Part shown: positions 28,031 to 62,653 of the stretch, in pieces
Layout of the letters: the number at the start of each line of letters is the position of its first letter
How positions within the stretch are numbered: the first letter of the stretch is position 1
Assembly (NCBI GenBank): GCA_965202805.1
Contig: OZ241869.1
Location: forward strand, 608,001-672,000
Reading direction: 5' to 3'
From: Longimicrobiales bacterium
GTDB lineage: Bacteria; Gemmatimonadota; Gemmatimonadetes; Longimicrobiales; Gaopeijiaceae
DNA length: 64,000 nucleotides
The notes under the pieces: model-generated
The model's input: only the letters and a program-made list of their open reading frames with translations
Told to the model about the DNA's origin: nothing
The model's database searches: none
Made by a program: the position numbers and the translations under genes

Positions 28031-28053
28031 GTCTGCTCCGAAAGGATCCTCTT

Positions 28054-28093
28054 CATATGGATTACCATATCGCCGATATGGGAATATGGCAAC
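28054..28093 (-). promoter_or_regulatory. vapB-type promoter/operator, copy A (upstream of the AbiV-like gene)
   Basis: Minus strand TTGCCA-17 bp-TATGGT-aatccat-ATG with CCATAT/ATATGG palindromes. Confidence 0.8.
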
Positions 28094-28147
28094 ATCATTC
28101 CCGTTCGCCACTCCGGTGGCGCCACGGTGAGAGCGGCTCGCGATGAA

Positions 28148-29611
28148 TCACGCGACGGAGCCCTTGGTTTGCCGAAGGCGGGCTTGAGAGAGTTGCTGCC
28201 TAAACCGGTCGACCACCTGGACACTGGTCTCTCCGGCCTGCGCCGCGATCCAGAGTTCCTGGAGGTTCTCTTGAGCCAGAAGCAAAACGTCGTCACGCTC
28301 GGCCTTTTCAATCTCGGCCTCGGATAGCGCCTCACGCGTGCTAGCCGTCGCCAGGACCGCGATCACTTCGCTGCCGGGAAGTTGGTTGCGCATATGCTCC
28401 GACCGAGCGATGAGCTTGCCCACCTTGCCGCCTGTGTCGAGCGACCCGACCGTACACTCGATCGCGAGCATCAGGGAAGATCCTGGCGCCTGAGCAAGGT
28501 GATCGATGGTGTTTCCCCGTCTGGTGTGCCCGGAAAGCGGGTGCATGTGGAATCCGAGGAAGAAGAACAGCAGGCCCACAGCGGCCTCGAACTGCTGCGA
28601 CTTGTTCTTCCCACGCGCCCGAAGCTGCTTCCGGAAGCGTTCAAGGCCAGGGTCGAGAGCGTCGTGAGCCTTGATCCGGATACTGGACGCGGTAGATGCC
28701 AACGGCACGGACACGCGGTCTACGCACCGGTCTCCGACGACGATGAATGCTGTGGCAGTGGAATCACCGTTCTCGACCGGGATGTCCAACTCCGAGAGGA
28801 GAGCGCCCCCCTCACGCGTCCATTCGCGCTCCGCGAGCCCGACCGATCCATGGCGAACCGGTTCTCCGATGCTGCTACCTACCGTCCAGATGACGTCCGC
28901 TTTCGTTACAAAGACATCTGCGGCAGCCCGGACGGCGACGGTCACGCGGTCCACCGACGAGGATACCTTCTCTGGATCAAAGCGCACGGCGAGGGGGGCG
29001 ATCAGCTCGATTACGGTAGTGTTGCCCTGGATCTTCAGGCCTTGGGGCCGTGCGCAGAACCTGCGCACCAAGTCGGGCAGGCCATCGTAGGCGTTCGGCC
29101 CGCCACGGATCATTCCGTCCAGCTCGAATGGATCGTGACCGGCTTGTCTCAAGACATCGAAGATTGAGGAACCATAGCCTACTAGCGAGTGACAGCTCCA
29201 CAGGTCGTACTCGGCAGTCCGGTACGCGCCGGCCAACTCATTGAAGCTGTACCTGATGTCGGTCGCAGGCTGATCCGACCGGCCGACGTATCTGACGTAC
29301 CGGGGCCGCAGCTTCATCCTGCCATTGGCGATGCCGCGGACTATGGAAGGGAGGTCCGCAACGGGACGAACGATCTGCCAGGCATGGAATTGACGTCGCT
29401 CGACCGGTAAGAAGCGTGGGACGGATCGAGGCGGACGATGGTCGAGGAAACCCCGGGTAACAAGGTTCATCCAGCGGCGGCCGCTACGGATCGCACAGAC
29501 GCGCAGATCCACGGACCGCCAGAACCCGCCGTCATTCACCAAGTCGATGAAGCGATCTGCGTCCTCCTCCGGAGAGCGCTCACGTCTTTCTTGTGACATA
29601 CGAGTCTCCAT
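28148..29611 (-). CDS. Hypothetical protein with a C-terminal restriction-endonuclease-like domain
   Basis: QFEAAVGLLFFFLGF...IDHLA...LAIECT resembles a PD-(D/E)XK-type core. Confidence 0.6.
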   Translation of the reverse strand: METRMSQERRERSPEEDADRFIDLVNDGGFWRSVDLRVCAIRSGRRWMNLVTRGFLDHRPPRSVPRFLPVERRQFHAWQIVRPVADLPSIVRGIANGRMKLRPRYVRYVGRSDQPATDIRYSFNELAGAYRTAEYDLWSCHSLVGYGSSIFDVLRQAGHDPFELDGMIRGGPNAYDGLPDLVRRFCARPQGLKIQGNTTVIELIAPLAVRFDPEKVSSSVDRVTVAVRAAADVFVTKADVIWTVGSSIGEPVRHGSVGLAEREWTREGGALLSELDIPVENGDSTATAFIVVGDRCVDRVSVPLASTASSIRIKAHDALDPGLERFRKQLRARGKNKSQQFEAAVGLLFFFLGFHMHPLSGHTRRGNTIDHLAQAPGSSLMLAIECTVGSLDTGGKVGKLIARSEHMRNQLPGSEVIAVLATASTREALSEAEIEKAERDDVLLLAQENLQELWIAAQAGETSVQVVDRFRQQLSQARLRQTKGSVA

Positions 29612-29793
29612 GGCCTCGGGCAGGGTTCCATCACTACGGCAAGTATCGTGAAACTAACATGCTCCGGTCTAGGTGGCCGAGTAGCGGCAAGGCCAGATCA
29701 TGGATCAAGCTGCGAGTAAGGGGCAGTCTCGCTGACTAAGCTCGCGGGCATCCGCTTAAGGGTGGAGAAATCGAGCCTGCGGACGGCCCTCAC

Positions 29794-30660
29794 TCACCCA
29801 CGGCCCGGCCTCCTCCCCGTCCCGCGCAGCTTCGCCACTTTGCTGAGAAGATCGAACCAGAACGGAGCGCCCAGCGATACCGCCGCGGCTGTGAAGAACC
29901 ACCCAAGAACATGGGCGATCCAGGTCCAAGCACCCCAATCCGGCAAATCATCATCCCGACCGAACGGATCTTCGCCCTCCCATCCAAGCGGAAACGACTG
30001 GAGAATCGCGTCCGCGACCTGCGCAGAGTCTGCGCTCACCGTGTCGGAGGCCGCGGCAACCGCCTCCTGGGCGATCGCATACCGCAGGGCGTCGTCCCGC
30101 CAGAGGTCCTGCACCACATGCACGGTGCTCGCGTTGGCCGACACGGTCACGACGGCGCCGATCGCGAAGATGATCAGTTGCGTCTGCCGCCTGTACCAAC
30201 CCGACACGCGGTTCATCCCTTCGTCGAACCAGCCGGCGACCTGGCGGCGAAGGTCGTCCACCGTCTCCGCTCCCAGATGGGTCAGCGCCCGGAGAGGCGG
30301 CTTGAGCGCGGAGTCGTCGCCGAGCCGGTCAACCAGCTTGGCCGCCTCGTCGCCCATGGCCACCACGGGATTGCCGTCCTCATCCTGCGCGACCAGGTCC
30401 ACGAGCGCCGAGGCGAAGGTTTCGGCTCCGATGTACGACGGGTTCTTCTTGCCCTTCGCCAGCGTGTTGACCAGCGGATGTCCATAGAGCCGCTGGGCAT
30501 AGTCGTCTCCGATCAGCGTCTCGACCCCCTTCCGAAGGTTCTTCGCCCGGAGCGAGAGCAAGGTTGAAACCCACTCCTTGACGACCGAGGCGACAAGGCT
30601 CAACACGCTGTAGAGCAGCGCGAGGCCAAGAGCGACATCGACTATCGGATGATCCAGCAC
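29794..30660 (-). CDS. Hypothetical multi-pass membrane protein
   Basis: Three hydrophobic segments; PSYI, WFD..M.RVSGWYRR, SLGAPFWFDLL; AGGAGG RBS. Confidence 0.75.
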   Translation of the reverse strand: MLDHPIVDVALGLALLYSVLSLVASVVKEWVSTLLSLRAKNLRKGVETLIGDDYAQRLYGHPLVNTLAKGKKNPSYIGAETFASALVDLVAQDEDGNPVVAMGDEAAKLVDRLGDDSALKPPLRALTHLGAETVDDLRRQVAGWFDEGMNRVSGWYRRQTQLIIFAIGAVVTVSANASTVHVVQDLWRDDALRYAIAQEAVAAASDTVSADSAQVADAILQSFPLGWEGEDPFGRDDDLPDWGAWTWIAHVLGWFFTAAAVSLGAPFWFDLLSKVAKLRGTGRRPGRG

Positions 30661-30679
30661 TGCGCCTCCTTTTCCTCTT

Positions 30680-30777
30680 TTAGTCCCCTTCCGCGCCCGC
30701 GGACCCCGCCGTCCCTCCTCCGACGGCGAAGCTCAGTCCGGCGCGGGTGGTCTCGATCGGGACGAACAGCGGTGCCG
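30680..30777 (-). pseudogene. Orphan 3' tail of a paralogue of the gene at 60693-62528
   Basis: 30704-30777 matches 60705-60778 at 69/74 nt; both encode APLFVPIETTRAGLSFAVGGGTAG. Confidence 0.85.
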
Positions 30778-30815
30778 GGCGTCCCATCTGACAGTGCACG
30801 CAGGCTCCTGAGTGC

Positions 30816-32030
30816 CTACTCCTCCGCCAGATTCTCGACGGGCGATAACCCATCCAGATCGATGGTAAGCACCTCGATTGCGCGTTTGCGGACGCCGATT
30901 CCGTGTTCGATGAGGAGGTCGACAAGCTTGTCCCCGTCAATGAGGGTGATTGGCGCGGCGCCTTGGGCGAACGCTGCTTCTATCGCACCCTTCGCGAAGC
31001 GGGAAGTCGCTACGATCGTCCCTCGCACGGCGTTGAAACGGTAGAGTGAGCCACGCAGGGCGTCCAGGTCCTTGCGTTGCACGGTTCTCTTGTGTCGCTT
31101 CGCCTGGACCACCTCACGGACCGAGGTGACGCCGAGTTCGATCTCGGCAACCACGTCGACACCTCCATCACCGGACTGTCCCACGACATCCACATTCTGG
31201 TAGTTCATGTGGTCGAGCAGGTGCCCGACGAGCTTCTCGAAGGCTTTGGGATCCATCTGTAGCAGGTGATCACGAAGAGCTGTTCGAACAGCGGCCTCGC
31301 GTGCCTTGGCGAGCTTACGGATTTGCTGACGTTCGTCGGACTCAGGCAACGTCACGACGCGCTTCAGGTAGGCGATCCCTCGGTGAGTAGCCGCGTACTT
31401 GCCGCGCTCTCGATCGATCAAGCGTCGATCGAGGAGGTTGTTCAGACGGCGGCGAAGTGTATCACGGATGGTCGAATCTGTACCGAAATTGGAATGTTGC
31501 TCAAGATACTCCGCCCATGCTTCGATCAGTTCCCCGAAACGGGCGGGTCCGTTTTCCGAGACCATCGCGAGGAGCTCTGTAAGTCCCTCTTGCTCGTCCA
31601 GGAAGACCTCTACGCGACCACCTTGATGCTCGATGAAATCACGACCGAGATCCGAGAGAACCAGGGTGCCATCGGATGCTATCTCGACTAGGTTGTATTT
31701 CTGGACCAGGAGCCAGTGCCCATAGGTGTGCCTCGGGTTGACACTCTGGCTGCTCTCGGTCCAGATCGCCCTGGCGAGATCACGTGTATCGCCAGTGAGC
31801 TTTGCCGGAATCCATGTGTCGGGATCCGTCCATGCAACAGGGTTCTGGGGTGTTCCACGAAGCTGCGCCAAGGTGCTGTGGAGTCCCGTAACCTGCGCCT
31901 TGGGACGGCCGGGCCACACCCTTAGCAGGTGTCGCACCTCGTCGTAGATGGGGAATACCGGGATGCGAACTCGCCGAGTGCGCTCAGCTACGCCAGTCTC
32001 GTCTTGGCCGCTCTTCCCGCTCTCGTGCAT
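30816..32030 (-). CDS. mrr: Mrr-family (type IV) restriction endonuclease
   Basis: MDPKAFEKLV..LL, SGDGGVDVVA, VQAKRH, TSRFA..A, ITLIDGDKLVDLL; start uncertain. Confidence 0.88.
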   Translation of the reverse strand: MHESGKSGQDETGVAERTRRVRIPVFPIYDEVRHLLRVWPGRPKAQVTGLHSTLAQLRGTPQNPVAWTDPDTWIPAKLTGDTRDLARAIWTESSQSVNPRHTYGHWLLVQKYNLVEIASDGTLVLSDLGRDFIEHQGGRVEVFLDEQEGLTELLAMVSENGPARFGELIEAWAEYLEQHSNFGTDSTIRDTLRRRLNNLLDRRLIDRERGKYAATHRGIAYLKRVVTLPESDERQQIRKLAKAREAAVRTALRDHLLQMDPKAFEKLVGHLLDHMNYQNVDVVGQSGDGGVDVVAEIELGVTSVREVVQAKRHKRTVQRKDLDALRGSLYRFNAVRGTIVATSRFAKGAIEAAFAQGAAPITLIDGDKLVDLLIEHGIGVRKRAIEVLTIDLDGLSPVENLAEE

Positions 32031-32114
32031 TTTGGGTCTCCATGGTCGATGACGGACCCAAGGTAACTGCGGCACTCCTGACCCGATACGGCAATGGCCA
32101 AGGGTAGCCCCCCC

Positions 32115-32552
32115 TCACCCCCTCACCGGATCCACCACCCTCAGGAACGGAAACCGGTGGAACCCGGTGTCCCGCGTGCAGATCCGGCTCACCCCGTGCT
32201 CGCGCATGAGCACCGCGGTGTGCAGGTCGTACATCTGGTTCCCGCGGATGTCGGGCAGCTCCGCCACGGTCTGCTCGAGGATCGCCGAGTGACGGCGGGT
32301 CGCGACCAGCATCTCGAACCCCGGTGAGTCCACCAGGGCGGCGATGAAGCGCCGGGCCTCCCCCGGCGTCCAGGGCGAGCGGAACACCCGCCGGTGGGTG
32401 CTCACCCGCAGGAACTCGTAGCAGATGTTCCAGGTCAGGAAGGCGGGCGACGGATCGCGCCGGGCTCTCTCGATCCAGCGGCGGCAAGGCTCACGGTACT
32501 CGGAGTCCTCGTCCGCCGCGTAGAGGAGCACGTTGGTGTCGAAAACCAGCAC
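32115..32552 (-). CDS. vapC: VapC PIN-domain toxin, copy 1
   Basis: VFDTNVLLYA, YEFLRVST, YDLHTAVLM, ICTRDTGF. Confidence 0.92.
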   Translation of the reverse strand: MLVFDTNVLLYAADEDSEYREPCRRWIERARRDPSPAFLTWNICYEFLRVSTHRRVFRSPWTPGEARRFIAALVDSPGFEMLVATRRHSAILEQTVAELPDIRGNQMYDLHTAVLMREHGVSRICTRDTGFHRFPFLRVVDPVRG

Positions 32553-32792
32553 TCACTCGTCCTCCATCGCGCGGTAGAGCTCTTCGCGATCGCTGATGTC
32601 CACCAGCTGTCCGCCGCTGCTCCAGGAGGGCAGGGGGGGCAGGTCGCCGGTCTCTCCTCCGGCGGCGTCGGGGTCGGCGAGGACGATCCGCAGCCCCGCT
32701 TCCACCAGCGCCGTCATCGTGGTGTCGCGCCGGGCCGCCTCCTGCCGGAGGCACCGCATGAGGGTGTCGTCGATGTTCAGGGTCGTCTTCAT
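32553..32792 (-). CDS. vapB: VapB/CopG-like RHH antitoxin, copy 1
   Basis: MKTTLNIDDTLMRCLRQEAARRDTTMTALVEAGLR; abuts vapC. Confidence 0.88.
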   Translation of the reverse strand: MKTTLNIDDTLMRCLRQEAARRDTTMTALVEAGLRIVLADPDAAGGETGDLPPLPSWSSGGQLVDISDREELYRAMEDE

Positions 32793-32829
32793 ATGGATTA
32801 CCATATCCCCGATATGGGAATATGGCAAC
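32790..32829 (-). promoter_or_regulatory. vapB promoter/operator, copy B
   Basis: Same 40-bp motif; ATG lies 7 nt after the -10 box with no SD, consistent with a leaderless mRNA. Confidence 0.8.
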
Positions 32830-32989
32830 GGCTCGCCTGTTGAGAAGAGATGGGGACGGCGTATGGAGATGAGGACGGTGGGGGTGGAAGTCCCGCAGAT
32901 CGCTTGGCCGGCCCCGCGCATTGGTCGCTGCTCGGACGAGTAGGAATTCTGTCACCCTTTTCGCGGGCTGGTCGGCAGCTGTTGCACCC

Positions 32990-33336
32990 CCGCCCCCCGC
33001 GCCCGCCGCACATAGCTGCCGACCGTGCTTGTGGGAGATCCAGAGAATGGCCTCGATCCGCGGGTGGCTTGGGCCGAGTCCGTACTTCAGCCGGAGAACA
33101 TCTCGAATCTTGCGCATGGACAACTTCTTCCGGGCCACCGTCTTCCTTCTCGCTCAAGGATCGCTCGCGAGGTTGGGAAGAACATCCCGGGCTGGCCACA
33201 ATCGACGGCGCATCTAGCTGGACGAAACACGTCGGAATGGGTGGACAGCATCCATCGAAACGAGTGGAGGAAATGAATAGGGAACCAGTGGACCGCATCC
33301 GTCGGAATGAGTGGTCGAAATGCGTCGGAGTCAGCA
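32990..33336 (-). mobile_element. IS21-family left-end remnant with truncated istA
   Basis: MARKKLSMRKIRDVLRLKYGLG from 33138; TG-initiated end with repeated (t)tccgacg...cca boxes at ~33230-33336. Confidence 0.75.
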
Positions 33337-33357
33337 GCAGGCTCCGGTGCTGAAGGT

Positions 33358-36102
33358 TCATTCCTCCGCCCGCACGCGCCGCCCTAGCTCGTTCACGAAG
33401 TCCAGGCTCTTCCTCGGAATCAGAACGTTGCGGGCCAATCGGAGTTTTTCCTCCAGGAGGTCGTGGAGGTGTTCCTCGACAGACTTCGAGCCTCGTCCCT
33501 CAACGACAGGGTAGTGTACCGTTACCGGACGATCTTGCCCGATCCGGTGCACTCTGTCAGTCGCCTGATTCTCCTTGGCTGGATTCCAGAGGCGCGTGTA
33601 GTGGATGACATGGGTAGCGCCAGTAATGTTCAGGCCGACACCGGCCGCCTCGGGTGACAGGATCAGCAGGTCGAACCTGCTACCACGGTTGAACGCTTCA
33701 ACGATTTCATGCCGATTGAGGCCCGCAACTTCCCCATTCAGGACACTGGGATGGAAGCCAAAGCGACTGGTGACCACCGCTTGGATGATTCGCTGCATGA
33801 TCTTGAAGCGGGTGTAGACGACCGCTTTCTCGCCAAGGGTGCGTACCTCATCGAGGATGTCCATGGTGCGTCTAAGTTTCGGAGCATCTCTCAGGAGTCG
33901 GTCAACGTCCGGTAGATCGGGGCCCTGGTCTACGATTGCCGGGTGCGAGCAGACTGCGATTAGCCGTTGCAGCCCCGCCAGCGCCATGATGGTCCCGTCC
34001 TTGACACCGCCTTGGATTTGGGAATAGAGGGCCGCCTGGCGTTCGCTCATGGGCACACGGTAGGTGCGGGCGTTCTTGGGTGGGAGCGCCAGTACTGCCT
34101 CCTTGGTGCGACGCACATAGTGGGGGTTTAGCCGCGCTCTCAGCCGTGCGACGTGGCCGCTTTCATCGCCGTCCTGATCTAAGGCGTCGACAAGGGGGCG
34201 CTCGAATTCGTCCCGGAACTCTGCACCGCTGCCCAGGCGGCCGGGCTGTGCGAAGTCCATGATGCACCACAATTCGGAGAGTCCATTCTCTACCGGCGTT
34301 CCAGTGCATGCGATCCGAAAGGAGGCCTTCATGCCCTTGATCGCGCTTGTGACGTTCGCAGTAGGGTTCTTCACGTTCTGGGCTTCGTCGCAGGCTACGA
34401 ACATCCAGTCCACTTTACCGAGCATGAGTTGGTCCCGCCGCAGCGTGGCGTAGGTGGTGATCACGAGTTCATGCTGGGCGAGACGAACCGGGTCTCGTTC
34501 CCTGAGAGGACCTCGATGCTCGTAAGCAGGCTCGATTCCCGGCGCAAACCGTTTCAACTCCTTCTTCCAATTCACGATTACGGACAAGGGTACAACCAGC
34601 AAGGCAGGCTTCAGCCTGCCGCAATCATGCAAGTGTGACATGAAGGCGATCAGCTGCACCGTTTTTCCGAGTCCCATGTCATCGGCCAGAAGGCCACCCC
34701 AACCGTTCTCATGCAGGTATCTCATCCACCTGTATCCGACTTCCTGATGCGGGTACAGTGTGGCGCGTAGTGCCTGCGGCGCGTCATAGCTGGGAAGCTT
34801 GGGCAACGGGGTTGATTCGTCGTCGGACTCGTCGTATTCCAACACCTCCGTGTTGGAGATAACGTCAAGAACGAGCTGAACCTCGCGCTCCTCGATCCTG
34901 CGCTTGCCGTCGCCATCCGTATCGGGATGGTCATCGCAGAACTCCAAGAAGCGTTTGGCTCGTTCGGGGTCAACCTCCATCCAGCCGTTTCGGTATCTCA
35001 CATAGCGCTCTCCGCTCGCAATAGACTGCTCCGCGAGTTCACGGAACTCTTCCGGGGACATCTCTTCAGCCAGTTGTTCATCCGACGTGCCGAGTTCCTC
35101 TTCGCCGGCTTGCTCGGTGATCTCAACCGAAGGACTTGCGTCGAACCAGCCGCGACGCTTTGCTCGCGTCACCGAGATATAGGGTTGGGAGCGGTAGCGT
35201 ACCGGAATCAGGCCACGCACCCTGTCACTGAAGTGGGCGAGCTCGACATCGACGGCGTCAGGCAGGAATGCCTCGGGATTGTCAAAGAACCTGGGGACAT
35301 CGGGTCCGCTCAGAATCGCGTTTCCTTGAAGGTGCCTGACAGCTTCGCGTTGGTCTTGCCTCAGCACCAGGCGTCGACGCCCGCCCGCGGCCAGGAACTG
35401 CGTGTAGACAGATTTGGCTGGACCGTCGGAGAAGCTTGGGAAGTCGCTCTCGTCAACTCCCCGCGCAGTCGGAGACAGCTTGATCTCCTCCGGCGATGTC
35501 ACTTCCACACCGACGCTGATACCGTCGGGGACGATGTGCTCTTCCCTCTTGAGAAAGTCATCGAGAGCGACTCGCTTTGACTGCCTTGCTAGCCGCTTGG
35601 CCTCTGCGATACGGAGGGTTCGATCAGAGACAGCTTTGGGGAGTTGTTCGTCCAGTAGGAGAACCAACTCTCCGATCGGTCGAGGCGGCAATGCCGGGCC
35701 TTGCGGTGTTTCAAACAGGAGCCCTGTGCGCTGGTCTGCAGGCAAGAGGTGATAGCCGGTCGCATCCGAGACATGGAGTTCAACCCAGAGTCGGAAATCC
35801 CGCTTGGTTGGCCAGAGATAGGTCTGTAGTTTGCCGAAGAATCGGTCGTCTGGCTGAGGAATCCCCAAGAGATCTCGGTCTTCCTTGTCAAGTTCGTAGA
35901 CATAAGGCCAGGGCAGGACAACCGTGGACGCAGCCTGCTTGACCAGATTACAGCCCCAGAGTTCCTCAAGCAGCCGGATCACTGGCACACCCCCTGCTGC
36001 GGAACCAGGGGCAAGGGGAAAGGTCGGTATGGGTACGCCGTCGTGATCAAGGAACTCGATTCCTGCTTGGACAGGCTTCCAACGTAACCCTTGGCCCTTC
36101 AT
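33358..36102 (-). CDS. zorD: ZorD-like SNF2 helicase/ATPase
   Basis: LADDMGLGKT, DEAQNVKN, TGTPVEN, WNPAKENQATDRVHRIGQ; ATGA overlap with zorC; no C-terminal nuclease visible. Confidence 0.8.
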   Translation of the reverse strand: MKGQGLRWKPVQAGIEFLDHDGVPIPTFPLAPGSAAGGVPVIRLLEELWGCNLVKQAASTVVLPWPYVYELDKEDRDLLGIPQPDDRFFGKLQTYLWPTKRDFRLWVELHVSDATGYHLLPADQRTGLLFETPQGPALPPRPIGELVLLLDEQLPKAVSDRTLRIAEAKRLARQSKRVALDDFLKREEHIVPDGISVGVEVTSPEEIKLSPTARGVDESDFPSFSDGPAKSVYTQFLAAGGRRRLVLRQDQREAVRHLQGNAILSGPDVPRFFDNPEAFLPDAVDVELAHFSDRVRGLIPVRYRSQPYISVTRAKRRGWFDASPSVEITEQAGEEELGTSDEQLAEEMSPEEFRELAEQSIASGERYVRYRNGWMEVDPERAKRFLEFCDDHPDTDGDGKRRIEEREVQLVLDVISNTEVLEYDESDDESTPLPKLPSYDAPQALRATLYPHQEVGYRWMRYLHENGWGGLLADDMGLGKTVQLIAFMSHLHDCGRLKPALLVVPLSVIVNWKKELKRFAPGIEPAYEHRGPLRERDPVRLAQHELVITTYATLRRDQLMLGKVDWMFVACDEAQNVKNPTANVTSAIKGMKASFRIACTGTPVENGLSELWCIMDFAQPGRLGSGAEFRDEFERPLVDALDQDGDESGHVARLRARLNPHYVRRTKEAVLALPPKNARTYRVPMSERQAALYSQIQGGVKDGTIMALAGLQRLIAVCSHPAIVDQGPDLPDVDRLLRDAPKLRRTMDILDEVRTLGEKAVVYTRFKIMQRIIQAVVTSRFGFHPSVLNGEVAGLNRHEIVEAFNRGSRFDLLILSPEAAGVGLNITGATHVIHYTRLWNPAKENQATDRVHRIGQDRPVTVHYPVVEGRGSKSVEEHLHDLLEEKLRLARNVLIPRKSLDFVNELGRRVRAEE

Positions 36103-37322
36103 GAGTACCCTGTCTTCCATGCCTTCAAGATGCGCCGAGCCTTGGGTTGCCATTTGGCATGATGAATGATCCGATTGTCTGAATGTTGCGGGATCGGCTG
36201 CGGCAGAATCTTCTTAATCTGCGACGGAGTCCCGAACGTTGTCCGTTGTCGAATGCGTTCCAGGATCGGATCGCCGTCAGGATAGATGTACGCGGCATTG
36301 CCGACCCTGAAGAACTCGAGGACCGAATAGCCCGGAAAGTCGATCAACGACCACTCCGAATCGCCGGCGAACCCGTGGGAAACGTCGAGCATTTCCCGTC
36401 GCATTGCCATCCAGAATCTGTGGCGTGCCGAGTCTCCCCTGAATGCGCGGTCGAGCGCCCGTGAAATAAAATACTCTCGAAAGTCTCCTTTTCGCCTATT
36501 GGACACTCGCTTCCAGTAGTTCGGCCGGGAATCACGAGCCCCAGGGAGTCCGTAGCTTCTTCGAATACTGTCCAGCGCGTTTCTGCTCTCATCCCAATAA
36601 GAGGGATCAACACGTTCGATATAATTCACGCAAGCTTCCTTCCGGCCCTCTCCGGACATCTCGCTCCATCCGTCGAGAACATCTTCTTCCGACATCCGAA
36701 GCAGTTGCCCACTTGAGCCCATCTGAAGAGTTCGGTGAAAGATCCGCTTGATCAATGGGGTGTCGGGGTTAAAGGGAGAAGCGGGGAGCATTGCCAAGTT
36801 CTCCCATCCGATGTCCTGACTCGCCGTCCAGCGGACGATGGCGTCAAGCGGCATCTCGTTCTGCAGCCAATTGGCGCCCTCCTCCGCGTAGCGTTCTCCC
36901 ATGGCAGGCTCCAATCCGAAGCGCTCGCTCATGGCCAGGAGCAGGGTCAGGACCTGCGGTGTTAGAGGGTGTTGTTGCCACGCCTTCCATAGAGCTGGGA
37001 CAAACGTTCGCTTGGGTCGTACCTCGGCCATTAGGCAGATCTCACGGCGAAGATCCCTCCACGTCCCGATAGACCGAACCACGCCTCGCAGTTCGCGTGG
37101 GGTGAGTGCGGCGGCCAGTCTGCGAAGTTCGCGTTCGGCGTCTCGGTGTTGCGCCGCTGCCGCGACTCGATCCCTGAGCGAGGTTGTTTCCGAGCCGCTC
37201 AGTTCTCGGGGCTCCGCTCGAGTTCCGGGATGACGCTGTTGGATGTTGCGTCGTACCGCCGGGAGCTTGGTGGGGCTGAAAGCCCACACATCTTGTAACG
37301 ACCTCACTGTGTCTGCTCGCAT
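36099..37322 (-). CDS. zorC: ZorC-like EH-signature protein
   Basis: RHRFW...VLEFFRVGNAAYIY...IIHHAKWQ; position between zorB and the helicase. Confidence 0.8.
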   Translation of the reverse strand: MRADTVRSLQDVWAFSPTKLPAVRRNIQQRHPGTRAEPRELSGSETTSLRDRVAAAAQHRDAERELRRLAAALTPRELRGVVRSIGTWRDLRREICLMAEVRPKRTFVPALWKAWQQHPLTPQVLTLLLAMSERFGLEPAMGERYAEEGANWLQNEMPLDAIVRWTASQDIGWENLAMLPASPFNPDTPLIKRIFHRTLQMGSSGQLLRMSEEDVLDGWSEMSGEGRKEACVNYIERVDPSYWDESRNALDSIRRSYGLPGARDSRPNYWKRVSNRRKGDFREYFISRALDRAFRGDSARHRFWMAMRREMLDVSHGFAGDSEWSLIDFPGYSVLEFFRVGNAAYIYPDGDPILERIRQRTTFGTPSQIKKILPQPIPQHSDNRIIHHAKWQPKARRILKAWKTGYS

Positions 37323-38059
37323 TGCGGATCGATTAGGATTGCGCCAAGCTCGAGCACTCGTTGAGCAAGTGTCTCGTCGTCCATCTGGAACCGAATCTCG
37401 ATCCTTCGAGAACCCACTCTATCGACCCTGCCGTCGGGGAGTAGCTTCAGATCGGCGAAAGAACGCCCGTTCGCAGTGACGAACTCCTTGAGGTCATCCT
37501 CATATGTTCCGGCTTCTTCCAACAGCACCTGCATGACGGCCATTGAACGGGCGTGCGACAACCCTAGGTTCAACTCGTAAGTTCCGTCGTCGTTCGTATG
37601 CCCCTCAACGACGATCCTATTCAGTTGCTCCCGGAAATCTTGATCCTCTAGCAACAGGGGGAAGTAGTCCCTCGCGAACGAGGCCAACTCTCTCCGCCCG
37701 TCCTGTGACACTTCCGCGCTCGCCTGCTCGAAGAGCAGACTACCGGCAAAGTGGACTGTGCCCGCGGAGTCCACGGTCACTCGCATGCTGTCGTTCACGG
37801 AGTCACCGTCAAAACGCTCCCGAAGGGTGCCAACGACCCGTTGGCGGGTATCCAGTAGTTCCTTGATCGTGTCAGCCGTAGCTTCGTATACGACCAGTTG
37901 ACACTCCCGAGTACCTTGCTGAAAAAGGGCTGCCATGAGCATGAGGGCGAACACCATGAGCAATCCGGCCATGAGATCGCTGTAGCTCAGCCAATAGTCC
38001 AGCTCTGTGCCCGAAGACCCCGTGGTCGTTCGCCGTCCGAACAACGGCCGCGCCATCAT
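37304..38059 (-). CDS. zorB: ZorB (MotB/OmpA-like)
   Basis: YWLSYSDLMAGLLMVF transmembrane segment with conserved Asp; VEGHT, NLGLSHARS, SRRIEIRF. Confidence 0.88.
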   Translation of the reverse strand: MMARPLFGRRTTTGSSGTELDYWLSYSDLMAGLLMVFALMLMAALFQQGTRECQLVVYEATADTIKELLDTRQRVVGTLRERFDGDSVNDSMRVTVDSAGTVHFAGSLLFEQASAEVSQDGRRELASFARDYFPLLLEDQDFREQLNRIVVEGHTNDDGTYELNLGLSHARSMAVMQVLLEEAGTYEDDLKEFVTANGRSFADLKLLPDGRVDRVGSRRIEIRFQMDDETLAQRVLELGAILIDPQCEQTQ

Positions 38060-40437
38060 CGACTCCGCCGGCGAGGGAGCCGGAAGAGCCAACGTATGAT
38101 ACCTCGTTTGGCGGTGCGCGGTTCGGCGGGTGCACTACTCGTATCCGGGGGTACCTTCCGATCCTCCACTGTTGTCTCGGGCATCTCTCCTACAGCTCGT
38201 CCTCCCTGGGCCCCGTCGCCAGCAGGCTCCCGCGGTGATTCCTCTTGCTCCCTAGTAGGTAGCGTTAGGCCGTCGTTCGATCTCACGCCCGGAGCCTGGT
38301 CATCGTCGCGCGTCTCGGCAACCGCTCGACGGCCACGGCGCCGAGACGGCTCGGCGTTCGTAGGCGTTCTGCCAGAGTCCCCATCCATGCGCTCCGGGGG
38401 CGGAGTAATGCCACCAACCTCCCGTCTCTGTTCGCCGCTGTCAGACCATCGCTGGGATGCCGCGCGCATCGTCTGGGCCAATTCGTCGATCGAGGCACGG
38501 ACATTCTTCATGGCTTCATTCATTGGGGCCACCTTCGCCGAGACGCTGTCTAGGCGTTCGGTGGCTCTTCCCGCCGACCTAATCGTCTCGTCAGCGCTGC
38601 GCTTGAGACCAGCACTCGCATTCTGGATTGACTCGACGAAGCCACCCATGCCATTGCTGATCTCCTGTGCCCTGGCAGGAAGTGACTCGCTCGCTTGTAG
38701 GAACTCCGTCCGCCCGGTATCCAGTCGTGCGGCGATTTCCCTAGCTGTCTTCTCGAACTCCTCGAGGCCTTGAGTAAGCGATTCTTGCTGTTGCCTGCCG
38801 GCCTCTTCCAAGCGGGTTGTGACATCGACCAGGCGAGTCGCGATCCCGGGAAACTCCTCAGTAGTCTCTCGCAGTTCGGCAAGAGTCCCGCCGAGGTGCT
38901 CGGCGACCCGACCCATTTCCGAGTCGAATGAGTGAAAGACCTCGGCAATCTTCTCGGCCGCCAAGCTCCGGAATTCAAGGATCTTGTCACCCAAATCCGA
39001 TGTCAGCGCCCGGAGATCCGTCCTCAAACCATCGAGCGCGTCCCGCTGTGCCGTCCAAGATGCGAAGAGTGCCTCAGCTGCCTCCTTTTGGGCCTCCATC
39101 TGCTGCCTGGATTCCCCAACGACACCCTCGGCCTCTTCCATGGTCTGCCGAGCCGCAACCCCAGCCCGCTCGATGGCTTGCTCCGATTCGGTCAACGCGG
39201 ACAAACCCCGGTCGAACGTGGCGGCAACGTTGGCCCCCCTGTCCAACACGTCCAACTGAGTCTTGGATACTTCTTCCAACAGGAGCATGAACGCTTCAAT
39301 CTCCCCCAGTGTTGCCAACTGATGAGCGCGAGCGCTCTTTATGGCTTCCCCAAAGCGGTGCAACTCTTCGCCAACATGAGAGACCAATGTATCGCGGAAT
39401 TCCGCAGCCATCCGCTCTAGAGCGTTTGTCTGACGCTCGCCCAGCTCGAGATTCAAGCTCTCGATCGGCTTCGTGATATGCTGCTCAATCAACGGCTCCA
39501 GTGCGCCCGCCATGTCTTGCCCCAAGGTCTGTATGCCACCCTTCACGCCATCCATTGCGGTGGCTATGTGCCCTAGAGTCTCTTGCGGCTGCTCGACAGG
39601 AAACAGGCGATTTGCGACGTCAACGAAATCTGCCAGGCTGGAAGCCAGTTTGCCCTTGGCCAGCCGGAACTCGAAGATCCACCAAATGGAGCCGGAAATG
39701 CCCACTATAGACGTGGAGAACGCGGTCGACATTCCTCCCATGAGAGTGTCGATGCCCAATCTCAGGTCTTCCGCCGACGGCGCACCACCAGTGCCTCCCT
39801 CAGGAATACCAGCTAGCCCGATCGCGATCCCGACGAAGGTTCCCAAAAGGCCAACGGCAGTGAAGACGCCGGGGAGAGCATCTGGAATCGTTCCCCCTGT
39901 TCTGCTCAGAACCGACTCCCGGGTGAAAAAATCCGCAGAGGACGCGATTCCAACGGCCTGCCCTCGTTGCTCGCGACGGGTCGCGATCCAAGCCGTGGTG
40001 AACCGCTCCCACCGTTGGGAGAAACGCGGTTCTCGAGCAAACGCTCTTGGGAGTCGAGAACGATTCTTGCGCTCCGTCTTAGGTATGTCCTCCTGTTGGC
40101 TCTTGTATCGGGCCGCTTCGTTCGTTGCCGTTTGTTGCGTCACCGTGCGCTGGGATCCATCAGCACGCGTAGCCGTCTTTCCTTGAGTGTCGCGAACTCG
40201 TTGCTTCAGTTCATCCGCAGCGACGCCGAGCGTTTTCGCCGCCCGGGTGCGTGGAATCCTGTACCGGAGCATGGCCCAGGAAAACCCACTGAGGAGAAGA
40301 AGAAGGCATGTCCACGCTACGAGCGAATCCGAGTTGGAGACGGTCATGCTGGGCCCCAACCACGTCATGACCACAAGGCTCAAGATGCCGATGGAGATGA
40401 AGCCTAGGGAACTAAGTAGATTCCTGAGATAGAACAT
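38056..40437 (-). CDS. zorA: ZorA (MotA-like with long helical tail)
   Basis: LPGVFTAVGLLGTFVGIAIGL, GMSTAFSTSIVGI, followed by a long heptad-rich tail. Confidence 0.85.
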   Translation of the reverse strand: MFYLRNLLSSLGFISIGILSLVVMTWLGPSMTVSNSDSLVAWTCLLLLLSGFSWAMLRYRIPRTRAAKTLGVAADELKQRVRDTQGKTATRADGSQRTVTQQTATNEAARYKSQQEDIPKTERKNRSRLPRAFAREPRFSQRWERFTTAWIATRREQRGQAVGIASSADFFTRESVLSRTGGTIPDALPGVFTAVGLLGTFVGIAIGLAGIPEGGTGGAPSAEDLRLGIDTLMGGMSTAFSTSIVGISGSIWWIFEFRLAKGKLASSLADFVDVANRLFPVEQPQETLGHIATAMDGVKGGIQTLGQDMAGALEPLIEQHITKPIESLNLELGERQTNALERMAAEFRDTLVSHVGEELHRFGEAIKSARAHQLATLGEIEAFMLLLEEVSKTQLDVLDRGANVAATFDRGLSALTESEQAIERAGVAARQTMEEAEGVVGESRQQMEAQKEAAEALFASWTAQRDALDGLRTDLRALTSDLGDKILEFRSLAAEKIAEVFHSFDSEMGRVAEHLGGTLAELRETTEEFPGIATRLVDVTTRLEEAGRQQQESLTQGLEEFEKTAREIAARLDTGRTEFLQASESLPARAQEISNGMGGFVESIQNASAGLKRSADETIRSAGRATERLDSVSAKVAPMNEAMKNVRASIDELAQTMRAASQRWSDSGEQRREVGGITPPPERMDGDSGRTPTNAEPSRRRGRRAVAETRDDDQAPGVRSNDGLTLPTREQEESPREPAGDGAQGGRAVGEMPETTVEDRKVPPDTSSAPAEPRTAKRGIIRWLFRLPRRRSR

Positions 40438-40594
40438 CGGCTGGCTTGGCGAAGACGTTGCTCGGGGCCCGAACTATGGACGGTTCGCGGAGGCGTAGCA
40501 AGGGAGCCCGATGGTGTCGGTCAGAGCGGCTAGTGCTAGTGCTGGCGGATCTTGTCCATCAAGGCCCGATACTGGAAACGTTCACGTTCCCCCC

Positions 40595-41032
40595 TCACCC
40601 CCTCACCGGATCCATCACCCTCAGGAACGGAAACCGGTGGAACCCGGTGTCCCGCGTGCAGATCCGGCTCACCCCGTGCTCGCGCATGAGCACCGCGGTG
40701 TGCAGGTCGTACATCTGGTTCCCGCGGATGTCGGGCAGCTCCGCCACGGTCTGCTCGAGGATCGCCGCGTGACGGCGCGTCGCGACCAGCATCTCGAATC
40801 CCGGTGAGTCCACCAGCGCGGCGATGAAGCGCCGGGCCTCCCCCGGCGTCCAGGGCGAGCGGAACACCCGCCGGTGGGTGCTCACCCGCAGGAACTCGTA
40901 GCAGGTGTTCCAGGTCAGGAAGGCGGGCGACGGATCGCGCCGGGCTCTCTCGATCCAGCGGCGGCAAGGCTCACGGTACTCGGAGTCCTCGTCCGCCGCG
41001 TAGAGGAGCACGTTGGTGTCGAAAACCAGCAC
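40595..41032 (-). CDS. vapC: VapC PIN-domain toxin, copy 2
   Basis: Differs from copy 1 by 3 amino acids. Confidence 0.92.
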   Translation of the reverse strand: MLVFDTNVLLYAADEDSEYREPCRRWIERARRDPSPAFLTWNTCYEFLRVSTHRRVFRSPWTPGEARRFIAALVDSPGFEMLVATRRHAAILEQTVAELPDIRGNQMYDLHTAVLMREHGVSRICTRDTGFHRFPFLRVMDPVRG

Positions 41033-41272
41033 TCACTCGTCCTCCATCGCGCGGTAGAGCTCCTCGCGATCGCTGATGTCCACCAGCTGCCCGCCGCTGC
41101 TCCAGGAGGGCAGGGGGGGCAGGTCGCCGGTCTCTCCCCCGGCGGCGTCGGGGTCGGCGAGGACGATCCGCAGCCCCGCTTCCACCAGCGCCGTCATCGT
41201 GGTGTCGCGCCGGGCCGCCTCCTGCCGCAGGCGCCGCATGAGGGTGTCATCGAGGTTCAGGGTCGTCTTCAT
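41033..41272 (-). CDS. vapB: VapB/CopG-like RHH antitoxin, copy 2
   Basis: MKTTLNLDDTLMRRLRQEAARR...; differs from copy 1 by 2 amino acids. Confidence 0.88.
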   Translation of the reverse strand: MKTTLNLDDTLMRRLRQEAARRDTTMTALVEAGLRIVLADPDAAGGETGDLPPLPSWSSGGQLVDISDREELYRAMEDE

Positions 41273-41309
41273 ATGGATTACCATATCGTCGATATGGGAA
41301 TATGGCAAC
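41270..41309 (-). promoter_or_regulatory. vapB promoter/operator, copy C (heads vapBC-zorABCD)
   Basis: Same 40-bp motif. Confidence 0.8.
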
Positions 41310-41616
41310 GTGGCTCCCGTTTGGCACTCTCGTGACGTCGCCCCAGGGGCTGGGGAGGGAGGTGACAGCGCGGCCTACGCCCGAAAACGCTAGATTGGAA
41401 CCGCACTGCAACCCGGTGACCGCGTTGTGTCGGGGGACGCGGGACGCTGGATGCAGTATCGCTACAAGGTGGATGGCACCATAACCGGGCCGCGGTATCA
41501 CGTGTTCCGTGAAGCGGCGTTGCGTCAGGCCGCGAGGCTTGCCAACCATGAGGGCGTCCGGTTGTTCGTTTGGGAGAAACCAGACAACGGCACTTGTGGC
41601 AGAAAGGGGTGATTCC

Positions 41617-44124: not shown

Positions 44125-44337
44125 ACGCGTCCCCACTATCACCGGCGTGAGGCGCGGGCCGGGGGCGGATCCTCTGGACTTGGGCCCGACGGCCAGAAAT
44201 AATCGCCGAAATCTCGCCCGGACGGTCTGATTCCTCGCCAATAAATCGGATTGGATCCGTTATTTTGGGCGGGATTGCGTTCCCCGCATCCGCCAGTGGA
44301 TACGCCATGCGAAAATCCTGGGGCTACAGGAAATTTG

Positions 44338-54738: not shown

Positions 54739-54742
54739 ACCA

Positions 54743-54771
54743 TTGACACTCACGCCTGTTGCTCTTAGGAT
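54743..54771 (+). promoter_or_regulatory. Sigma70-like promoter upstream of the ACP gene
   Basis: TTGACA-17 bp-TAGGAT. Confidence 0.55.
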
Positions 54772-54832
54772 CAAGCCACATTTCAATTGTTACTGGTAGC
54801 TTTCTGGTACCTTTTCAAAGGGAGACGCTGCG

Positions 54833-55054: not shown

Positions 55055-55103
55055 AACCGGCACCGCTGGGTTCTGGCCGCCCTACCGGCGATCCGCATCT
55101 CAC

Positions 55104-57563: not shown

Positions 57564-57697
57564 CGCTATTGCTCACTAGGAGTCTGCGCCGCAGGAATCT
57601 CGCACTACTACCTATGGTAGGTTAATACGCCCATGCTACTACTTGTCGTGTGTTCGGGGGCTTTGGATCGTTCTGTGGCGCAAGCTGCCAGTCTCTT

Positions 57698-58972: not shown

Positions 58973-59051
58973 GATACGCCTCCCTGTGACGGAGTTGATT
59001 GGGGCTCGACCTTTCCAACACTCGGAGAATAGGCAATCCGGATGGCCTCTC

Positions 59052-59525: not shown

Positions 59526-59709
59526 GCCATCCACGACCGGCCCGGAGGCGATTGCTTGGGGATCGCCAATTTTTCGGCTGATCGCTGCGGGACCAGTCGG
59601 TATGCTCCCGGTGAGGTGCCGCATCAATCTCGACGGAATCCTGGGCGTTTCCATGGCGGCATCGGCCTGGCCCCTGCGAGCAGAGAGTCAACCATGACGG
59701 TACGTCAGG

Positions 59710-60342
59710 CTAAGCTCGTCTTCGGGGAAATCGGTTGGAACCAGAATCGGATAGCCCTCCCCAGGCCCGCAGCACCTGACCGGACATGGTTCCCTCAACG
59801 GCTTCGACGTAAAAACGTGCGCATTGTTCGGCGGTGACCAGACCCAATCCCTGTCGTCCAGGTTCAACAACAGGCGCGGGGCTCACGACATTCACCCGAA
59901 TCCCTCGTGGCATCAAGCGTGCAACATTTTGCACATAGGTATCGACCGCCGCATTCAGTGGACCGATCGCAATGCTGGCCGGGTTCGGATAGTGGCTGAG
60001 GAAGCCGCTCGTCAATGTAAACGAGCCATTGTCTCGAATGCTGGCCTGCCCGAGTCTCACTAGCCGAATCTGACCGAGGAACTTACGGTCGAACCCGTAC
60101 CGATAGTCGGCACTGTCCAGCTGTTCGAATTTCTTGAAAACGCCATCGCCGCCCACGACGGCAACGAGGGCATCGAACGGACCAACCGCTCCAAACATTT
60201 CCCTCACCGAATCCGCATTCGTGTAGTCACACTGAATGTCACCGCTCGTTGTACCAATGCGAACAACTTCGTGGTTGTTGGAGACTGCGATGTCTATCTT
60301 GCGTCCAATGGTGCCGGACGCGCCAACTATGATTACCTTCAT
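59710..60342 (-). CDS. Short-chain dehydrogenase/reductase
   Basis: VGASGTIG, GSFTLTSG, GIRVNVVSP. Confidence 0.88.
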   Translation of the reverse strand: MKVIIVGASGTIGRKIDIAVSNNHEVVRIGTTSGDIQCDYTNADSVREMFGAVGPFDALVAVVGGDGVFKKFEQLDSADYRYGFDRKFLGQIRLVRLGQASIRDNGSFTLTSGFLSHYPNPASIAIGPLNAAVDTYVQNVARLMPRGIRVNVVSPAPVVEPGRQGLGLVTAEQCARFYVEAVEGTMSGQVLRAWGGLSDSGSNRFPRRRA

Positions 60343-60533
60343 TAGTTTTCTATCCTCGCCGGGGTCGCCGTGGAAAACATCTCATCAACCTGCCATACTC
60401 TGGGCACATGTCCTCCAGGTCTCCTGGTTATCTAACGAATTATAGGACTAGTCGGTTCGATGCCCCAAGTCAAGTTCACAAGCACGGATTCTGGCTCCGA
60501 CGCGCTCCGTCGTCAGATTTGAGCGGGACCGTT

Positions 60534-60659
60534 TCAATCACGATCGGCGTTCGGTGGGGGGTGGCCGTTGATGATGACGTCGCAGCAGTCTCCTCGACAT
60601 CCACTGACCGCCGCGATGGCGAACAACGCCAATGGCGTGACCGGTGTGCGAGATCCCAT
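60534..60659 (-). pseudogene. Short lipoprotein-like ORF, probably a truncated gene
   Basis: MGSRTPVTPLALFAIAAVSGC... 41 aa, GAGGAG upstream. Confidence 0.35.
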
Positions 60660-60692
60660 CCTCTTCTCCTCGCGCAATCCTGCCCCTCGCCG

Positions 60693-62528
60693 TCACCCTC
60701 CGGCCCCCGCCGTTCCTCCTCCCACGGCGAAGCTGAGTCCGGCCCGGGTGGTTTCGATCGGGACGAACAGCGGTGCCGCGCTGCCCCTCTGGTATCCCAC
60801 AAGATAGGTCACCCCGCCCATATCGACTTCCACGGCCAGGTCCCAGAGCGTGTGGAAGTCGCCGCTGGCGCCGTCCGGACGGTTCCACAGGCCGGCGTGG
60901 CGGATGTTCAGCAGCATGTTGTCGGAGACCGGAAGCCGCCACCAGGTCTCGTAGCCGACTCGCCGGAACGTTGCCTCCGGAGTCGAAGGGGGCAGGGTGC
61001 GGGCGCCCGAGTCCGTGGGCTCGCCGGGGCGGACGAGTCCCCGGCCGTAGGCCGCGATCACGTTGAGGCGGGGCGACGCCGCGGGACGGTAGGCGCCCGA
61101 CTGAAGGGTCGGATTGAAGGGCAGCACGTAGGCGAGCCGGGCTTCAGCGGACATGTCGACGGCGTGGAGCCCCTGGTCCGACTGGCCCTTGGCGCTGACG
61201 GTGAGGGGCAGCCAGTCGCCGGGCAGGAGGTTGAACGCCGCGCCGGCCTCCAGGGTCAGACGGTTGAAGCTGGTTTCGGCCCGGGTGGCGACATCGCCCG
61301 ACCACCGGGCCTGCGTGAGCCAGCGGCCGTGGGCCTGCTGCCGGTAGACGCCTCCTTCGAACGACAGGCTCAGGTCCTGGAACCCGCCGCCCGCGGACTC
61401 GTCGCGTGTGAAGGGGTTGGCGTTGAATCGCAGGAACGGCCGCTGTTCCAGGTACTGGCGCTCGACGTCGGAGGGGGCCGGGAGGGGCACGACGAGTTCG
61501 GGCGATTCCCCCGTCACGGGGTTCCCGGCCGGGTCCCGCTTCGCGATCAGCGGCCCGTCGATGTCCTCGCACGCGCATCCGGTGAGGGTAAAGGCCCCGC
61601 GGGGGAGCGTGAGGCGCAGGAACTCGCCGGCCCAGTCCATGTCCAGGGGCGGCAGTTCGATCTCGACCCGGTCGCCCCAGCAGTCGGCCGCCGCGTCGCC
61701 GCATCCTCCGATCCCGATGGACGCCGGGGGATCCAGGGGATGGCAGACGGTGCCGCGCTCGACGACCCGGCAGCGCTCGACCCGCGCGTCCGCGGTCCCG
61801 GTGCCCCCGATCCCCGCGCCCCGACTTACCGCGAACACGAATTCCTCCGTCGACCTGTCGTCGGGGAGAATCACGTCGGCCACGAGATCGGAGACCTCCG
61901 GCGCGCGCGCGTAGAAGTAGAGGTCGACGATCAGGTCCTCCCGGAAACCGGCGCCTCCGGCGAGCTCGGTCTTGGCTCCGACTCCGGGCGCGGGTTCGGA
62001 GTAGAAGACGTCCTGGCCGCTGGCTTGCCGGGGACCCGCCGCCGCCAGCGCCAGGGCCAGGAGCAGCCCGGAGATGCGGCCGGCGTGATGCCGGCACCAG
62101 CGCCGCCACGTCCAGTCCTCGGTGCACAGCCGCTGCAGGTACACCCGGACGCGCTCGTATCCCTTATCCCCGAGGGCGGCGACGCAGCGCGCCCGAAAGG
62201 TCATCAGGGTGTCGTTGTAAGGGGGCGAGATCGGGCAGCTGTCCGCGGACGCCTCGACGAGCTCCACGCATGGACGATCGAGGAAGAGGTCGCTGTCGGG
62301 GTCGGAGACGTGGGCGTAGAGCCCGACGCGTTGGCAGGCGAGCAGAGCGCATTCGCGCACGTCGGATTGGCGGCTCATGGGGTACGGTCGCCCGTCATCC
62401 CCATCTCCCGCAGGAACTGGGACGCATCCTTCAAGTAGCCGTAGTACGTCATCGATCTCGTCAGGGTCAGCGTCTTGCGTGCCGTCGGTTAGCCGCCTGC
62501 CGTCTCTTCGCGCATGCCAAGCTAACAT
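60693..62528 (-). CDS. Hypothetical exported/outer-membrane protein with an unusual N-terminal extension
   Basis: Internal signal-like LLLALALAAAG...ASGQ, beta-rich C-terminal half; true start uncertain (possibly MSRQSD). Confidence 0.6.
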   Translation of the reverse strand: MLAWHARRDGRRLTDGTQDADPDEIDDVLRLLEGCVPVPAGDGDDGRPYPMSRQSDVRECALLACQRVGLYAHVSDPDSDLFLDRPCVELVEASADSCPISPPYNDTLMTFRARCVAALGDKGYERVRVYLQRLCTEDWTWRRWCRHHAGRISGLLLALALAAAGPRQASGQDVFYSEPAPGVGAKTELAGGAGFREDLIVDLYFYARAPEVSDLVADVILPDDRSTEEFVFAVSRGAGIGGTGTADARVERCRVVERGTVCHPLDPPASIGIGGCGDAAADCWGDRVEIELPPLDMDWAGEFLRLTLPRGAFTLTGCACEDIDGPLIAKRDPAGNPVTGESPELVVPLPAPSDVERQYLEQRPFLRFNANPFTRDESAGGGFQDLSLSFEGGVYRQQAHGRWLTQARWSGDVATRAETSFNRLTLEAGAAFNLLPGDWLPLTVSAKGQSDQGLHAVDMSAEARLAYVLPFNPTLQSGAYRPAASPRLNVIAAYGRGLVRPGEPTDSGARTLPPSTPEATFRRVGYETWWRLPVSDNMLLNIRHAGLWNRPDGASGDFHTLWDLAVEVDMGGVTYLVGYQRGSAAPLFVPIETTRAGLSFAVGGGTAGAGG

Positions 62529-62613
62529 GCGTACCCGCGGTCGCCGTCAGCGTCCTGTCATCGAAGTACCCTCGGAGCGGATCCAGTCGTAAAGGTATCG
62601 CATCGCCGCACGT

Positions 62614-62653
62614 CATATGGATTACCATATCGTCGATATGGCAATATGGTAAC
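62614..62653 (-). promoter_or_regulatory. vapB-type promoter/operator, copy D
   Basis: catatggattaccatatcgtcgatatggcaatatggtaac, 38/40 identical to copy C. Confidence 0.8.

Follow-up and report, generated by a model that had tools for sequence, protein, structure and literature searches.

A repeated vapBC promoter in a defence island of a Longimicrobiales bacterium, and the probable place of its toxin-antitoxin module at the head of variable defence cargo

A 40-base motif occurs four times, in one orientation, within the 64,000-nucleotide stretch of Longimicrobiales DNA analysed here (the window, which is the 608-672 kb portion of its own 4.02-Mb genome, G000; the other G numbers denote related genomes). 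This motif is the ordinary leaderless promoter/operator of one clade of vapBC toxin-antitoxin (TA) loci, its operator role being assigned from established TA biology. We consider it probable that the motif, as the promoter and start of this clade, is autorepressed by a ribbon-helix-helix (RHH) antitoxin, and that the promoter-plus-vapBC module is the recurring head of a variable defence slot, transcribed by read-through. The defence content of the window comprises McrBC, a type I restriction-modification (RM) system, Mrr and Zorya, next to a large polyketide synthase (PKS), and several of the sequencing runs that carry window DNA are sponge metagenomes.

The copies start at 28054 (A), 32790 (B), 41270 (C) and 62614 (D), as an initial annotation of the sequence had reported, and differ pairwise by 1-4 mismatches in 40 bases. 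Read on the minus strand, they conform to GTT(G/A)CCATAT..CCATAT.....ATATGG....CCATATG, with a -35 box TT(G/A)CCA, a 17-base spacer, a -10 box TATGGT and an ATG 6 bases further on, and with four CCATAT/ATATGG half-sites overlying the boxes; the promoter and half-sites proposed in that annotation are thereby borne out. Conservation within the motif is promoter-like, with fixed boxes and free spacers. A hairpin reading was rejected, the folding energies being weak (-0.2 to -6.6 kcal/mol). The next best match in a genome-wide scan was a fifth copy, E, with 6 mismatches, and everything else had at least 14. Scans with the exact pattern, which is too strict for distant copies, gave 1 match in the genome collection and 0 in metagenome contigs.

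Two of the copies, B and C, head complete modules followed by defence genes:

32109..32830, minus strand: module B (promoter/operator 32790-32829, vapB 32553-32792, vapC 32115-32552), with a PIN match
30816..32075, minus strand: gene of an Mrr-family nuclease, cargo of B (Mrr_cat, E 4.6e-29; PDC-S02, E 2.5e-136)
40589..41310, minus strand: module C (promoter/operator 41270-41309, vapB 41033-41272, vapC 40595-41032)
33358..40437, minus strand: Zorya type I operon (zorA, zorB, putative zorC, zorD), cargo of C, called by PADLOC

In both modules the ATG of the motif opens the gene of a 79-amino-acid antitoxin, and a PIN toxin gene comes next. The toxin matches PF01850 above the cut-off in both copies and, in the C copy, TIGR00028 at 99.6 bits (cut-off 73.6 bits). 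Homologues of the antitoxin match a FitA-like RHH family (14/21) or RHH_1 (7/21), the window antitoxin alone falling below the cut-off. Moreover, the antitoxin family profile matches a CopG RHH chain (E 1e-5), and the predicted antitoxin model has helices at 9-21 and 26-39; the window VapB sequence used alone as query gave no significant solved relative. A PIN toxin following a small antitoxin, an RHH-like antitoxin and repeats that overlap the promoter were all found, and by sequence they place the locus among the vapBC type II TA systems.

The association between motif and vapB extends well beyond the window. Protein searches detected VapB homologues in 38 of the 151 genomes of the order, and most of the 30 such loci that were read, distant homologues included, have the same -35/-10 spacing right before the ATG. 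A degenerate form of the motif gave 27 matches in 22 of the 301 genomes of the family, and 0 when the pattern was read backwards. Full-length vapB and vapC follow 22 of these matches, one is cut by a contig end, and four are orphans (A, D and the copies G002b and G018b in G002 and G018); 17 motif copies form one supported clade. This position upstream of vapB across the order, together with the RHH-like antitoxin, supports the TA promoter/operator that the initial annotation had suggested. Related loci in various states of decay were also seen. At G000:C1:2302793-2303460 a related operator precedes another vapBC, in which the antitoxin is reduced to its C-terminal part; G018b and a locus in G053 show a similar loss of the DNA-binding part. 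In G400 (L154:10337-10381) a degenerate copy lacking the ATG lies among other TA genes, 4.4 kb behind an intact vapBC.

Defence genes were scored behind the module when a PADLOC match with E<=1e-25 was present in the first or second downstream gene and the first gene was co-oriented. By this rule, 11 of the 22 intact copies carry defence cargo, compared with 3 of 59 other PIN loci (Fisher p 1.3e-5); when kin, which are not independent, were collapsed to distinct contexts, the figure was 7/15 (p 3e-4). The control loci were picked from the top of the score list without restriction to islands (19/19 of G000, 12/14 of G009, 18/47 of G041 and 10/37 of G056, none coming from G010 or G134), and 110 downstream control proteins of at least 80 amino acids, predicted with a simple gene caller of our own, were scanned. 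Two of the three control matches are of SspA/DndA type and probably housekeeping. The 11 cargoes represent seven types, namely Mrr/PDC-S02, Zorya I, Druantia III, Ppl (4), a PD-T4-4A-like ATPase (2), Schlafen-like plus HmaC, and PDC-S01, so that diverse operons do stand behind the module. An absence of defence enrichment behind the motif in other genomes, which the initial annotation had set against its own proposal, was thus not what we found. A link between vapC and a Ppl/TrlF-like ATPase gene was seen in G009, G105, G376 and G041, and with vapC 3' fragments in G007 and G015, across two genera; a Schlafen/AlbA_2-like gene is next after the ATPase gene in all of these except G009. The pair is possibly the ancestral cargo.

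The arrangement around vapC is in line with co-transcription. The first downstream gene lies on the same strand in 16/22 intact copies vs 21/59 control PIN loci, the gap after the vapC stop is about 3-70 bases for most of the defence cargo, and a G-rich tail after vapC stands at ribosome-binding distance from several cargo starts. In the window, the gap is 39 bases from the vapC stop of B to mrr and 157 bases from that of C to zorA, and no terminator-like site was seen in either; the short gaps and this absence favour read-through from the vapBC promoter, as judged from sequence.

Copy A offers the clearest example of the promoter being joined to another gene:

28054..28093, minus strand: copy A, an orphan vapB promoter/operator with intact -35 and -10 boxes
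28027..28056, minus strand: 9-codon leader, the first 14 vapB bases fused to the upstream of the AbiV-like gene; its stop overlaps the AbiV ATG (ATGA)
26738..28030, minus strand: AbiV-like (HEPN) gene, cargo of A
28148..29611, minus strand: 487-amino-acid gene in the upstream flank of A, 92% identical to its counterpart in G018

The AbiV-like assignment of the initial annotation holds for TIGR04498 (29.3 bits, cut-off 27), while PF18728 (HEPN_AbiV, E 1.7e-5) stays under the Pfam cut-off. At the junction, 14 vapB bases meet the last 11 bases of the native upstream DNA of the AbiV-like gene, which hold its ribosome-binding site; the orthologue in G011 shares only these 11 bases before the ATG, and the native upstream beyond them is lost in A. 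With both boxes intact and a 9-codon leader translationally coupled to its cargo gene, this copy is likely a captured promoter that still works.

These observations bear on a plainer explanation, namely that the TA module has simply been duplicated and has decayed in a fragment-rich island, with transcription ending at vapC and defence genes being neighbours by location only. The island is indeed rich in other repeated fragments (the 3' end of an exported-protein gene, a 48-base element, insertion sequence (IS) ends and vapC 3' pieces), decay of TA loci by deletion has been described (PMC7167474, in the portion of the paper available), and the next gene is on the opposite strand in 6/22 intact copies. 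The same-strand bias, the very short gaps and the G-rich tail speak against it, as does the AbiV-like gene of A, left with 11 bases of its own upstream DNA. We therefore regard island debris alone as unlikely.

Variation of the cargo was seen behind a single flank. At the same locus in G018, the flank of A (92% identity over 1653 bases) is followed by an intact vapBC, DruH3 and DruE3. Run X3 of another study has a contig in which the flank of A is joined to that of C (28121 to 41334) and a second one spanning zorABCD, with a depth below 1 over the AbiV gene; a further contig of this run carries the C flank as it stands in the window, so that the run may mix strains. The same upstream flank thus heads AbiV, vapBC-Druantia or vapBC-Zorya in three strains (window, G018 and X3), that is, one flank and three cargoes. 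The 487-amino-acid gene in this flank, called REase-like in the initial annotation, had no Pfam, PADLOC or NCBIfam match and its Atlas clusters are unnamed. Its product has a 70% paralogue at G000 2,675,706-2,677,169, near a methyltransferase-like gene; we regard it as a defence candidate.

Modules B and C are the two units of a 722-bp direct repeat (97.9% identity), each running from 1 base upstream of the motif to 6 bases past the vapC stop; between them they enclose zorABCD and an IS remnant. The four 40-bp copies are real, but B and C are not independent 40-mers. Two short remnants adjoin these modules:

32985..33337, minus strand: left-end/istA remnant between zorD and copy B, matching G000 3,610,592-864 and an IS upstream of the second copy in G018
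41310..41337, minus strand: 28-base remnant of an A-type upstream flank before C, the similarity between A and C reaching 28121/41337

The first of these we take to be IS21-like. Within the Zorya operon, PADLOC supports ZorA (E 3.4e-23), ZorB (E 5.3e-54) and ZorD (E 7.2e-252); the gene annotated as zorC gave no meaningful family match in Pfam, PADLOC or NCBIfam and keeps its name by position. For module B, vapBC followed by mrr stands as first described, whereas the membrane gene assigned to the same cassette belongs with the exported gene near D. Among the joints listed for contigs of 8 runs, which drop rare variants, no form lacking the B-C segment appeared. A 30790-41269 joint in run X1 was discarded as most likely the D locus mapped onto its paralogues. 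A 48-base element at 41355-41401 is also found twice in the island of G002 and once in that of G001.

Copy D has had a different fate from copy A:

62614..62653, minus strand: copy D, an orphan promoter/operator with the -35 changed to TTACCA and vapB lost after 4 bases
62389..62612, minus strand: unrelated DNA (224 bases) separating D from the conserved upstream of the exported gene, the G002 match starting at 62389
60693..62378, minus strand: exported-protein gene, with no family match in Pfam, PADLOC or NCBIfam and no defence annotation
29794..30660, minus strand: membrane-protein gene; in G002 it directly adjoins its partner, the exported gene, from which it is split in the window
30700..30790, no strand assigned: 91-bp copy of the 3' end of the exported gene (89% identity), which with 60701-60791 brackets a 30-kb block

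The exported-protein gene placed behind D by the initial annotation is present, not directly, however, for it starts 238 bases past the ATG of D and the intervening 224 bases do not match the upstream DNA of its G002 orthologue. Its product is likely an outer-membrane barrel; its Atlas neighbours are barrel-like, which we take as a lead only. D itself adjoins an ion-channel gene and, from its sequence, is likely a silenced remnant after loss of vapBC. The same intergenic region lacks the motif in G005 and G008, divergence setting in within about 5 bases of the 5' edge of D. The 30 kb between the membrane-protein and exported genes are likely an insertion, because the two genes are neighbours in G002. 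The 3' end of the exported gene is also found as a fragment in G005 and G008. The 30-kb block holds, between C and D, a 3495-amino-acid type I PKS (44251-54738), presumably resembling the SupA type of sponge symbionts.

Counting copy E, five orphans are known (A, D, E, G002b and G018b), and only A precedes a defence gene. E lies 1.8 Mb away, at about G000:C1:2,433,095-2,433,134, with four intact half-sites and changed -35 and -10 boxes; its ATG opens an operon that we assume to be lipoprotein-sorting/ABC-transporter-like. G002b heads an antisense gene fragment and G018b a broken vapBC. D, E and G002b together show six changes at -35/-10 bases that are invariant in the 22 intact copies (an invariance partly built into the search pattern) and no change in the half-sites, a pattern expected if orphan promoters are silenced or if the operator is retained.

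Retention of the operator would be expected if the orphans formed a selected regulon, in which VapBC represses several operons that are released together when the antitoxin falls, much as the initial annotation had proposed. Consistent with this, when each of the five orphans is compared with its nearest intact copy, the 15 differences seen in total all lie outside the four half-sites, as do the 4 differences of E within its 34-base core (p ~0.005); many spacer differences may, however, predate the loss of vapBC. Furthermore, A is an intact, translationally coupled fusion, every orphan is in a genome that keeps an intact vapBC, the D junction recurs in X10, a run of another study, and the other TA loci of the genome have no orphan copies. 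The distribution of sites argues the other way. When 20 intact promoters from other genomes were combined into a profile, it found in G000 only copies A-D, E and two overlapping weak matches in a coding linker (score 19.2 was reached once in the reversed control), with no operator before the McrBC or type I RM genes of the island; across the 18 further genomes of the genus, an operator-only pattern added no orphans. At the position of E, G001 has a palindrome with paired changes and other relatives retain only traces of the eroded site, and by eye E showed no sign of co-evolving with the vapB promoter of the respective genome. Conserved intact operators before related units were thus not found: one orphan of five precedes a defence gene, none is conserved across species, and D, E, G002b and G018b head junk or non-defence genes. 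We hold such a regulon to be quite unlikely; co-regulation by VapB is weakened to the single fitting case of A, and of the silent remnants that the initial annotation had feared in A and D, D is decaying and A is not. The sequences do not support a conserved defence regulon, and trans-binding at A would likely be a by-product of sequence identity. Two further observations were made alongside. Three tandem 21-base units like the 3' half of the motif stand in frame at G000:C1:520254-520335, in the linker of a CoxD-like AAA ATPase gene; this linker is hypervariable (21-216 bases in 10 genomes), and the units are absent in the 9 relatives read. In the window, a PDC-S06 ATPase gene (14106-16697) is inserted between hsdM and hsdS, which are adjacent in G018.

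The position of the breaks next raises the question of a site-specific recombination site of att or integron type, at whose 40-mer a recombinase would swap cassettes. The B/C repeat begins 1 base upstream of the motif, the D insertion point is no more than about 5 bases from it, and the orphans break at +3 to +14 of the ATG. These breaks lie close together without coinciding at one base; the vapC fragments of G002, G005, G007, G008, G015 and G001 begin at differing positions; the empty site of G005 and G008 holds no copy of the motif; and the sequence is conserved as a promoter is. The nearest tyrosine recombinase is more than 200 kb off, at 880 kb, the genome gave no match to a serine resolvase, and the window has no tRNA. 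Neither a linked recombinase, nor a fixed crossover base, nor a site in the empty allele was found, and we consider a dedicated recombination site highly improbable. The recurrent cargo-swap junction suggested at the outset survives as the promoter-plus-vapBC module and fails as a 40-bp recombination site.

We thus return to the module as recurring head of a defence slot. Its RHH antitoxin would autorepress the vapBC promoter, and in an island of high turnover homologous and illegitimate recombination of the ordinary kind would exchange the cargo, the module serving as a shared anchor that needs no dedicated recombinase. A and D would be what remains after deletion of vapBC. Because the operator of A is identical to that of B and C at 39/40 bases, VapBC would also repress A in trans, as a by-product, and loss of VapB would raise transcription of mrr, Zorya and AbiV together in this strain; such a joint rise would be a local consequence of duplication, not the output of a conserved regulon. 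A bolder version, which we find doubtful, is a portable defence switch, in which VapBC represses whatever is swapped in, orphan operators extend its control, and phage-induced antitoxin loss releases VapC, Zorya, Mrr and AbiV; here the bound repressor would also mark the seams, because breaks occur at both edges of its footprint.

Several points weigh against placing the module at the head of a defence slot. Kin share cargo, and Ppl plus Schlafen occurs in both main genera, so that a single ancestral linkage within a defence island may account for most of the enrichment. Defence genes can also stand upstream of the module (Shango in G001, HmaA in G093), and the gaps before zorA and druH (287 bases for the latter) leave room for promoters of their own. 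Some matches are to candidate systems (PDC-S01, PDC-S02) or are partial ATPase matches (PD-T4-4A), Ppl is under its NCBIfam cut-off, and among five outgroup copies only one has a defence neighbour. Finally, random deletion does not explain why all five orphans break within so short an interval (chance ~1e-5 if three independent events were distributed uniformly across 678 bases), and the 19 other PIN loci of G000 show no orphan promoter copy. Selection for promoter capture, or shielding of DNA by bound repressor, are our guesses at the cause of this clustering.

In any case, most of what the sequence presents is ordinary TA anatomy, the worthwhile variant being a vapBC clade that appears as recurring head of a defence slot, together with one probable promoter capture. 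What turns defence systems on is still an open question, and the regulators known so far are dedicated repressors. If the proposal is true, an intact TA pair acting as promoter and repressor of interchangeable cargo ties induction to antitoxin turnover, and unannotated genes directly behind vapC of this clade become defence candidates; if read-through fails, what is left is an ordinary TA locus duplicated in an island. A literature search found no title or abstract start describing vapBC at the head of swappable defence cargo, and likewise none on TA-controlled defence operons or on vapBC with Zorya or Ppl, most subscription papers and supplements being outside that search.

Among known systems, autoregulated vapBC type II TA loci (TIGR00028, RHH) are the closest, with the same gene order, PIN toxin, RHH-like antitoxin and promoter-overlapping repeats. 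Operator autoregulation has been reported for an enteric vapBC (PMC3378870, in the part of the text accessible). Unlike in typical vapBC loci, variable co-oriented defence cargo follows here and the promoter also occurs in orphan copies. Integron and att cassette arrays are similar in having a same-orientation repeat between variable defence genes; here, by contrast, the repeat is a promoter, crossovers show no fixed point and no integrase lies nearby. Repression of distant genes by MqsA is reportedly disputed. The claim is that genes beyond the TA operon are repressed by way of palindromes in their promoters (PMC4894380). MqsA has another fold, and its targets are stress and biofilm genes. 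A looser likeness is to Reg576 of p576 (RHH) and to the CUP elements with ArdK/ArdR of pKM101, where one RHH repressor serves several promoter-operators heading separate units (PMC6294495). According to the sections of that work available, those systems comprise plasmid anti-defence genes with conserved sites, CUP exceeding 400 bp, whereas ours is a chromosomal TA promoter with orphan copies not conserved between species. In CapK/CapS and RptR, as described in the available portions of the reports, the promoter of a neighbouring immune operon of variable content contains repeats to which a repressor binds (PMC13373217, PMC12255303). The likeness lies in a candidate repressor at the head of variable defence operons. 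CapH/CapP and BrxR/CapW are further regulators that head defence operons. CapK/CapS and RptR are, from what could be consulted of those reports, dedicated regulators established by experiment, whereas the putative repressor here would be the antitoxin of an intact TA pair.

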